Source: a virus
Taxonomy: Duplodnaviria; Heunggongvirae; Uroviricota; Caudoviricetes
Virus record (IMG/VR): IMGVR_UViG_2563366961_000002
Coordinates: 1 to 35,248 of that record
Length of the DNA: 35,248 nucleotides
Direction: 5' to 3' (one strand)
Shown: one piece after another, positions 13,134 to 13,415 of the stretch
Layout: every line of letters begins with the position of its first letter
How positions within the stretch are numbered: the stretch's first letter is position 1
Made by a program: the position numbers and the translations under genes
Notes under the pieces: model-generated
Told to the model about the DNA's origin: nothing
The model's input: the letters and a program-made list of their open reading frames with translations, nothing else
The model's database searches: none

Positions 13134-13415
13134 ATGATAAGGGACAGGAAAGCTGAAGAGCTGGAGTCAAAAGGGCTATACCGGAGAGCTGCCGCACGAT
13201 GGATGGAAGTCATGCTGTTATGCACCGAGGACGATGATCGGGAATGGATAAAGCGCCGCCGTGAAACGTGTCTGGAGAACGTGAAGCGCCCGCCCGTGAA
13301 GGTTGAGGAATTTGGCGACCTGCATAAAGCTGTTACCGAAACGCAACACCGCATGGGGATAGCGCAACCGAACGGTAACGCCTTCCGGTTAAATGGCGGC
13401 AAGAGGCAAAGGTAG
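13134..13415 (+). CDS. PerC-family transcriptional regulator (Pch-like)
   Basis: GAGAGG upstream; ELESKGLYRRAAARWMEVM...REWIKRRRETCL matches the PerC signature as recalled. Confidence 0.65.
   Translation: MIRDRKAEELESKGLYRRAAARWMEVMLLCTEDDDREWIKRRRETCLENVKRPPVKVEEFGDLHKAVTETQHRMGIAQPNGNAFRLNGGKRQR

Follow-up and report, generated by a model that had tools for sequence, protein, structure and literature searches.

A PerC-family gene behind an origin module of an EcCIMP1-type phage satellite, and its likeness to ANR proteins

The window analysed here is a stretch of DNA of 35,248 nucleotides from a virus record (IMGVR_UViG_2563366961_000002), and the gene in question, called perC below, is a short coding sequence on its plus strand that an earlier note, made from the letters alone, had described as a regulator of the PerC/Pch type carried on a mosaic element. 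Our analysis shows that perC is a genuine gene of Pfam family PF06069, carried by an EcCIMP1-type phage-inducible chromosomal island (PICI) at tRNA-Thr (thrW), and that its product is identical to the published EcCIMP1_025, which represses LEE1 (LEE, locus of enterocyte effacement) when expressed in Citrobacter rodentium, as known from the literature. It is probable that perC belongs to the backbone of the island and that its product would act by a mechanism similar to that of the ANR (AraC negative regulator) proteins. The gene, the family label, the carrier and the LEE-repressing activity are all already published. Our additions, namely a quantitative link between PerC and ANR, two inverted origin units with perC behind one of them, and the conservation of the linkage between origin and perC, are modest and incremental to the work of Pick et al. 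2025 and Fillol-Salom et al. 2018.

The perC product, its family and its published activity

The open reading frame (ORF) runs from an ATG to a TAG, occupies exactly positions 13134–13415 of the plus strand (93 codons), and is preceded by a Shine-Dalgarno sequence, GAGAGG, 5 nt 5' of the ATG. Its product matched the Pfam model PF06069 (PerC transcriptional activator) with an E value of 3.7e-30 and 104.5 bits, the gathering cut-off being 22.6, and residues 1–85 aligned to model positions 1–85 of 90. This significant profile similarity upholds the PerC-family membership proposed in the earlier note. In addition, the PHROG family phrog_994 matched the product end to end (E=1e-37), and RefSeq gives the coding sequence the name "PerC family transcriptional regulator" (WP_000617443.1) in three complete genomes, those of AF3, of the enterotoxigenic Escherichia coli (ETEC) strain H10407 and of E. 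coli MP1, the first of which is 100% identical to window positions 11000–16000. Membership holds on every sequence criterion: the product is a helical protein within the usual range of about 90–100 aa, it carries the N-terminal motif KAE.LE.KGLYRRAA.RW, and it has the invariant Cys. Residues L10, E11, R17, R18 and C46 were invariant across 53 sequences, PerC of enteropathogenic E. coli (EPEC) among them.

The ratio of nonsynonymous to synonymous substitution (dN/dS) was 0.10–0.21 against seven orthologues from other genera; perC is therefore a coding gene held under purifying selection rather than an ORF arisen by chance. Its shadow on the other strand is a 139-aa ORF (13112–13531). The family is small, as a profile search over 1.84 billion representative proteins returned only 369 relatives at E<=1e-3; a 1346-aa repeat protein that also appeared in this search (P0114) was a low-complexity artefact and was ignored. 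Part or all of the 841-nt perC region was matched in 671 (about 12%) of 5426 complete E. coli genomes, and at least 80% of it in 244. The stop codon of the E. coli gene (TAG, 13413–13415) is replaced by a glutamine codon in the 103-aa orthologues of other genera, which read on; thus, the E. coli protein is without their non-conserved 10-aa tail, QTTSGGDGSQ.

All 93 residues of the perC product are identical to those of EcCIMP1_025, the sole PerC-family coding sequence of the EcCIMP1 element of E. coli MP1. EcCIMP1 is a PICI of 19,963 bp that occupies a tRNA-Thr site with proA on one side and yagU on the other (Pick, Stadel & Raivio, ISME J 2025, PMC11773190), and its excision and transduction took place only with the P22-like helper phage Kapi1 (PMC11773190). 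When EcCIMP1_025 was expressed in C. rodentium, it silenced a LEE1-lux reporter in a dose-dependent manner, both in lysogeny broth (LB) and in Dulbecco's modified Eagle medium (DMEM), whereas EPEC perC activated the same reporter in the same set-up, and Pick et al. proposed that EcCIMP1_025 is really a repressor of the ANR type (PMC11773190). The role of activator of virulence loci implied by the earlier note is therefore contradicted for this exact sequence, and the label "activator" is probably wrong for the window protein, whose identity to EPEC PerC is no more than 37% (28/75).

This comparison was made with EPEC PerC as encoded on pMAR2; identity to a PerC-family paralogue from an EDL933 record was 43%. 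EPEC PerC, from the per/bfpTVW operon of pMAR2/pEAF, and PchA–C of enterohaemorrhagic E. coli (EHEC) resemble the perC product in being small, basic, helical proteins encoded on horizontally acquired DNA, and EPEC PerC has in common with it the Pfam family and the N-terminal helical motif. The settings differ: PerC is plasmid-borne, in an operon with the AraC-type PerA, the Pch proteins are encoded on lambdoid prophages, and the window gene lies behind a satellite origin. The functional group formed by PerC and PchABC consists of LEE1 activators carried either by the per operon of pEAF or by lambdoid prophages in LEE-positive strains, and the perC product falls outside it both by its carrier, an EcCIMP1-type PICI, and by the published LEE1 assay (PMC11773190). 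PerC-family genes are also present on the classical E. coli PICIs EcCICFT073 and EcCIEDL933 (Fillol-Salom et al. 2018, PMC6092414), their PerC-like proteins being about 40% identical according to PMC11773190. In the terms in which Porter et al. 2005 is cited in PMC11773190, the PICI-borne PerC homologues of EDL933 and CFT073 gave no LEE1 activation. The gene is thus a concrete case of a family name pointing to the wrong function, and since this exact protein represses LEE1, perC genes on PICIs ought not to be scored as virulence activators in genome surveys.

The satellite carrier and its two origin modules

The carrier is mobile and mosaic, as the earlier note had supposed, with an attachment (att) core and a replication module, but it is an EcCIMP1-type phage satellite at tRNA-Thr and not a prophage. 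The att core TCCTATTATC flanks EcCIMP1 as a repeat and was defined experimentally there (PMC11773190); in the window, it marks the right end of the satellite, about 1.7 kb from perC (Table 1). Given this core and the identity to EcCIMP1, window positions 1–15124 are the right-hand three quarters of an EcCIMP1-type satellite. The order of features along it is an Ash-family gene with a C4 antisense RNA, the primase-helicase gene, a P22-type module with IS1, small hypotheticals, perC, a 61-aa ORF and a pRiA4b ORF-3 gene. The integrase, the gene of the helix-turn-helix (HTH)/AlpA type and tRNA-Thr lie just beyond the window, and the collinear elements of H10407 and MP1 contain them, so that the features typical of an EcCIMP1-type PICI (tRNA integrase, att repeats, AlpA, primase-helicase with an iteron origin, and no capsid or lysis genes) were all found. 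Collinear copies without IS1 and with 99% identity are present in other complete genomes.

EcCIMP1 and the window element are alike in the PerC protein, the type of element, the tRNA-Thr site between proA and yagU, the att core, the six upstream iterons, the 61-aa ORF and the pRiA4b ORF-3 gene. In contrast, the region left of the iterons holds a 151-aa hypothetical gene in the window and the alpA_1 region in EcCIMP1 (MP1), the gp16-like ejection gene differs between the two, and only the window element carries an IS1 truncating the gp20-like gene.

The iteron module that the earlier note had seen beside perC is real. The iteron GTTGGTTCA occurs in 12 exact copies in the whole window, all of them in two clusters, and with one mismatch allowed there were 19 matches, compared with 8.3 +/- 2.9 in shuffled sequences. 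Module 1 begins 26 nt past the primase stop codon and combines three tandem GTTGGTTCA with three inverted TGAACCAAC around an AT-rich spacer; module 2, which ends 36 nt ahead of the perC ATG, is its inverted paralogue, with a nearly identical core of about 50 nt and six exact sites in each, so the iterons adjoining perC are identical to those behind the primase gene. Both modules are also found in MP1 and HB37. Two iteron sets around an AT-rich region constitute the origin of Gram-negative PICIs, EcCICFT073 and EcCIEDL933 included (PMC6092414), and the EcCIMP1 paper makes no mention of iterons or of an origin (PMC11773190). The adjacency of perC to iterons has an ordinary explanation: module 2 duplicates the replication origin, behind which related satellites also carry their perC-family genes.

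The two inverted modules lie about 7.4 kb apart and bracket the cargo of ejection-protein genes. This recalls the layout of ori and crr in P4, where, as in the satellite, two separated clusters of the same iteron stand in opposite orientation, several kb apart and next to a primase-helicase gene. P4 is also mentioned in PMC6092414. The P4 iteron sequence differs from GTTGGTTCA of the satellite, and a cis role of module 2 in replication is a candidate function. In H10407, module 2 is kept despite a swapped primase and swapped primary iterons.

Two accounts of module 2 were rejected. It is improbable that the divergent 151-aa protein uses the iterons as its operators, as the gene for this protein is absent in MP1, where the six iterons are kept, and is present without iterons in the related locus L019, where it has TGTAAGACAG repeats of its own, just as the window gene has its own palindromes; moreover, the iterons equal those behind the primase gene. 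No match to any family of Pfam or NCBIfam was found for this protein. A strict co-variation of module 2 with the primase type was found in MP1, HB37 and the loci L020 and L023, but it fails in H10407 (locus L002). There, the primase is a hybrid whose N-terminal 351 aa are 85% identical to the window primase and whose C-terminus is of the DUF5906 type, and the primary iterons are ACCTRTACCA, yet the GTTGGTTCA module before perC and perC itself are unchanged (L002 7027–7133, 8140–8243, 14098–14209). This mosaic implies that module 2 can be an orphan, not always matched to its cognate Rep, and in H10407 the GTTGGTTCA module is, by sequence comparison, an orphan origin copy left behind by modular recombination.

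Matches in other E. coli genomes break either within the iteron module (at about 12997) or within perC (at about 13217), the stretches compared being window positions 12880–13217 and 12997–13720. In HB37, the first 28 codons of perC are in common with the window and identity falls to about 54% afterwards. From these breaks, the iterons, like the conserved 5' end of perC, appear to serve as recombination joints.

The linkage between origin and perC extends well beyond E. coli. Among 25 loci with perC relatives from other Enterobacterales, about 16 showed the order replicase, iteron origin, an optional gene for a single-stranded DNA-binding protein (SSB, PF00436) and perC, and perC sits just downstream of the primase gene and the origin in related islands from roughly a dozen further genera of enterobacteria. 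In at least 10 of the related loci, the iteron sequence varied with the type of replicase (TGAGACAACA, TGAACCAACA, GTAGGGATAA, ACTGTCTACC, CTTGTCCCA, ATCCCTACCA, CTGAACCGAC), and the position right after the origin was kept across satellites with at least five types of iteron and replicase. Compact Enterobacter elements have a bipartite origin with adjacent units, in which the last three tandem iterons abut the downstream genes as in module 2; in the Pantoea and Chimaeribacter elements (L020, L023), unit 1 is followed by perC and then by the cargo, and elements of the E. coli type have their cargo of about 7.4 kb flanked by an origin unit on either side. The gene was found in Shimwellia, Kluyvera, Enterobacter, Pantoea, Lonsdalea and Buttiauxella, among other genera that are not known to carry LEE. 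Linkage of origin and perC across such genera is an argument for regarding LEE regulation as cross-talk and perC as satellite backbone rather than virulence cargo.

The gene upstream of perC is divergent; therefore, perC needs a promoter of its own, and it probably has one with the -35 hexamer in the last iteron (Table 1). The predicted -10, TATAAT, is perfect, and the -35, CCAACA, is weak. Relatives with other iteron sequences have a similar motif behind their last (tandem) iteron. With a -35 placed inside an iteron, occupancy of the iterons by the primase/Rep could gate the expression of perC, which we offer as a hypothesis only.

Relationship to ANR proteins and possible roles of perC

The NCBIfam model of the ANR family, NF033650, scored the perC product at 31.1 bits (E=1.6e-7), where the curated cut-off is 32, with residues 5–50 aligned to model positions 7–52 of 54. 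The same model matched the N-terminal half of every PerC-family protein tested, with 18.2 bits for EPEC PerC, 16.2 for the EDL933 paralogue, 20–25 for more distant satellite homologues and about 28–32.5 for the clade of EcCIMP1_025. A Klebsiella homologue 78% identical to the perC product reached 32.5 bits and is already named "ANR family" by NCBI. In addition, some of the relatives recovered in the profile search consist of the N-terminal domain alone (55–70 aa) and score 21–32 bits on this model.

The published ANR signature comprises A10, E14, A22, W26, A29, W43 and R47 plus a Cys, distributed over three helices (PMC4983702). The perC product has six of the seven residues (A7, E11, A19, W23, W38 and R42), with V26 in place of A29 and C46 as the Cys, and their spacing is kept except for an inter-helix loop that is two residues shorter. 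EPEC PerC has L and K in the columns of W38 and R42. An AlphaFold2 model built with 51 homologues was all-alpha, with five helices, three of which (5–13, 16–29 and 33–50) lie in a segment with a predicted local distance difference test (pLDDT) above 90 (residues 5–50), the other two (57–73 and 79–84) being in the less confident C-terminal part. A Foldseek search of this model against the PDB gave no DNA-binding fold of the HTH, winged HTH or ribbon-helix-helix type, the best matches being MIT/TPR-like bundles at E of about 1, and a phmmer search against PDB sequences gave no relative below E=0.9. The C-terminal extension of about 40 aa (residues 55–93, FGDLHKA..ETQHRMGIAQPNGNAFR) is conserved in the perC product and its homologues.

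On these profile alignments, the N-terminal domain of PerC and the ANR domain are judged to be homologous, forming one unit, and the EcCIMP1_025 clade to be the PerC branch nearest to ANR, still without being a canonical ANR. Like the perC product in its predicted N-terminal part, the known ANR proteins (Aar of enteroaggregative E. coli (EAEC), Rnr of EPEC and C. rodentium, and Cnr of ETEC) have three helices bearing the signature residues, and both Rnr and EcCIMP1_025 repress LEE. However, ANR proteins are smaller than 10 kDa and consist of three helices only, whereas the perC product has 11.0 kDa. Membership of the perC product in the ANR family is thus borderline: the signature is present, the score falls 0.9 bit short, and size and architecture differ.

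ANR proteins act through protein–protein contact. Rnr, a repressor of LEE, binds both H-NS and Ler (PMC10148876), Aar contacts AggR via its helices 2 and 3 (PMC4983702), and Pch, the EHEC homologue of PerC, displaces H-NS from the LEE1 promoter and thereby activates it (PMC4764244). The convergence of Rnr/ANR and Pch on nucleoprotein complexes of the H-NS family is the ground on which a contact with H-NS-family or AraC-type proteins is proposed for the 93-aa protein. By analogy, its N-terminal helices would bind H-NS-family proteins (H-NS, Ler) and/or AraC-type activators; nucleoprotein complexes would thereby be altered and silencing shifted, rather than a specific operator being bound, and the sign of the effect would depend on the protein variant and on the promoter. 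The effect on LEE is probably cross-talk; as most hosts of the gene family have no known LEE, the native targets are more likely to be genes of the satellite, of the helper phage or other H-NS-bound genes of the host. Linkage of the origin to perC and homology of PerC to ANR argue together for a native role in the satellite or the nucleoid rather than in pathogenicity islands.

Several points weigh against this reading of perC as a LEE1-repressing, ANR-like backbone gene. LEE1 repression was seen with the protein expressed from a plasmid in a heterologous host. On the ANR model, the product stays just under the curated cut-off, and the C-terminal extension is absent from canonical ANR proteins. 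ANR genes are usually linked to an AraC-family regulon, whereas no AraC-family gene is annotated in the perC element of AF3, H10407 or MP1. Binding of a partner by the 93-aa protein is a proposal made by analogy. As for expression, a sigma-70 consensus scan requiring at least 4 of 6 matches per hexamer called no promoter before perC, and a start about 7 nt past the -10 would exclude the Shine-Dalgarno sequence from the transcript, which is an awkward geometry.

An alternative that we regard as possible, though on balance doubtful, is that perC is mainly a factor of the satellite life cycle and that the LEE effect is an artefact, the product being a silencer or anti-silencer of PICI or helper genes, a replication-coupled regulator, or a contributor to superinfection immunity. 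The conserved position after the origin, the purifying selection on perC and the candidate -35 within an iteron are in favour of it, as is the superinfection immunity that EcCIMP1 confers against Kapi1 (PMC11773190). However, the presence of perC is variable among EcCIMP1-like elements (Pick et al., PMC11773190), and this alternative extends the explanation preferred here without excluding it.

A wider reading, also tentative, would join these lines. PerC-family genes would be core genes of satellites, wired to the origin by a promoter overlapping the Rep-bound iterons, so that the regulator would be made in step with origin firing and would remodel H-NS-type complexes on satellite, helper-phage or host DNA, and the EcCIMP1 origin would be split in a manner similar to ori/crr of P4. 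If this were true, PerC/Pch "activators" and ANR "anti-activators" would be two exapted branches of a single superfamily of H-NS modulators derived from satellites or phages, and the EcCIMP1 origin would consist of two inverted halves bracketing a swappable cargo cassette. No description of a split origin of the P4 ori/crr kind for PICIs was found in the PICI literature compared here (PMC11773190, PMC6092414).

The role put forward in the earlier note, a PerC/Pch-type activator switching on virulence loci such as LEE in the host, is improbable. The Pfam family and the N-terminal motif are indeed those of EPEC PerC, and the PHROG families matching the N-terminal half are labelled "transcriptional activator", but the opposite effect on LEE1-lux of the identical protein, its low identity to EPEC PerC, the inactivity on LEE1 of the EDL933 and CFT073 homologues as cited from Porter et al. 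2005, and the occurrence of the gene in genera not known to carry LEE all speak against such an activator.

Least likely of all is a cis-linked regulator of the E. coli common pilus (ecp) operon: ecpE, ecpD and ecpC do lie within the window (30841–35168), but perC sits inside a mobile satellite bounded by the att core, a second island of about 13.8 kb plus yagU and ykgJ intervene, orthologues of perC in other genera have unrelated flanks, and any effect on ecp would be in trans, as on any H-NS-bound locus. The nearness to ecp that the earlier note had found worth remarking is incidental, since AF3, H10407 and MP1 all have yagU-ykgJ-ecpEDC as the chromosomal neighbour of the tRNA-Thr site whatever the island inserted there, different islands being found beside it in H10407 and MP1, and it carries no regulatory implication.

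Other features of the satellite and its flanks

The coordinates of the features are collected in Table 1.

Table 1. Features of the window with their positions, strands and the evidence used to call them.
Feature	Position	Strand	Evidence
Primase-helicase (Zn-ribbon, Toprim, DUF927), presumed Rep recognising the iterons	2681..5440	+	Pfam
Iteron module 1, canonical PICI origin: three tandem GTTGGTTCA, AT-rich spacer, three inverted TGAACCAAC	5466..5576		Sequence read
P22-type DNA-ejection and head module between the origin copies: DUF2824/phrog_651, gp7-like, gp20-like Inj_translocase, gp16-like	6203..10962	+	PHROG, Pfam, RefSeq
Divergent 151-aa hypothetical, with its own palindromic repeats at ~12898-12926	12419..12874	-	ORF; inverted repeat I11
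Iteron module 2: three GTTGGTTCA at 21-nt spacing, AT-rich spacer (GC ~0.31), three tandem TGAACCAAC at 9-nt spacing	12977..13097		Alignment to module 1
Candidate perC signals: -35 CCAACA 13093-13098 in last iteron, 16-nt spacer, -10 TATAAT 13115-13120, Shine-Dalgarno GAGAGG 13123-13128	13093..13128	+	By eye
perC, PerC-family coding sequence, 93 aa, 11.0 kDa, pI 9.6	13134..13415	+	ORF, Pfam PF06069, identity to EcCIMP1_025 / WP_000617443.1
Right-end partners of perC: 61-aa ORF 13713-13898; pRiA4b ORF-3 family protein 14019-14561	13713..14561	+	Pfam PF07929 E=1.1e-42
att core TCCTATTATC, right end of the satellite	15115..15124	+	1 occurrence in window vs 0.03 expected
Second integrative element, tandem at tRNA-Thr	15125..~28900		HTH_36 18866-19582; capsid protein E 21695-22723; Dit-like tail 26228-26941; tyrosine integrase 27023-28357 (-)

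At the left of the window, Rfam recognised a C4 antisense RNA at 175–262 (79.9 bits, above the gathering threshold) that overlaps the start of the Ash-family ORF (179–721). This arrangement of C4 antisense RNA and Ash is that of immunity regions of the P1/P7/P4 type. The satellite carries a complete set of P22-type DNA-ejection genes without capsid genes (6203–10962), and its gp20-like Inj_translocase gene is truncated by IS1 (8095–8792), with about 670 nt lost. Directly after the ejection genes, a 204-aa hydrophobic protein (10982–11596, minus strand) was weakly similar to the PHROG family of SieA-like superinfection exclusion (phrog_7745, E=4.4e-4), with no match in PADLOC; a different gene occupies its position in the MP1 element. 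The PADLOC search of perC and its neighbours for defence systems likewise gave 0 matches. Of the two right-end partners of perC, the 61-aa ORF was found by tblastn in 11 loci of other genera and the pRiA4b ORF-3 protein in 6.

In the 297-nt gap after perC (13416–13712), a structured RNA or riboswitch was considered and rejected, as the fold had a z-score of -1.39, 25 of 200 shuffles were as good, and there was no Rfam match; over the wider perC region, Rfam gave only spurious miRNA models on the iteron palindrome. Between 13585 and 13652, that is, 170–240 nt past the perC stop, G-rich and C-rich arms (GGGGAG...CCCGCCCC) are followed by seven T's. They may form an unusual terminator with a long loop, which the terminator scan did not call.

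The second island, which extends from 15125 to about 28900, separates the satellite from yagU, ykgJ and ecp and could be a capsid-forming satellite or a prophage remnant; an IS2 insertion splits one of its genes. Beyond it, an IS009 small RNA was recognised by Rfam between yagU and ykgJ (29675–29875, 193.4 bits, above the gathering threshold). Finally, the longest ORF for ecpE (30841–31314, minus strand) spans no more than 157 aa, and the ecpE of the 100%-identical strain AF3 is annotated in RefSeq as carrying a frameshift; the ecp operon beside the islands may therefore be defective.

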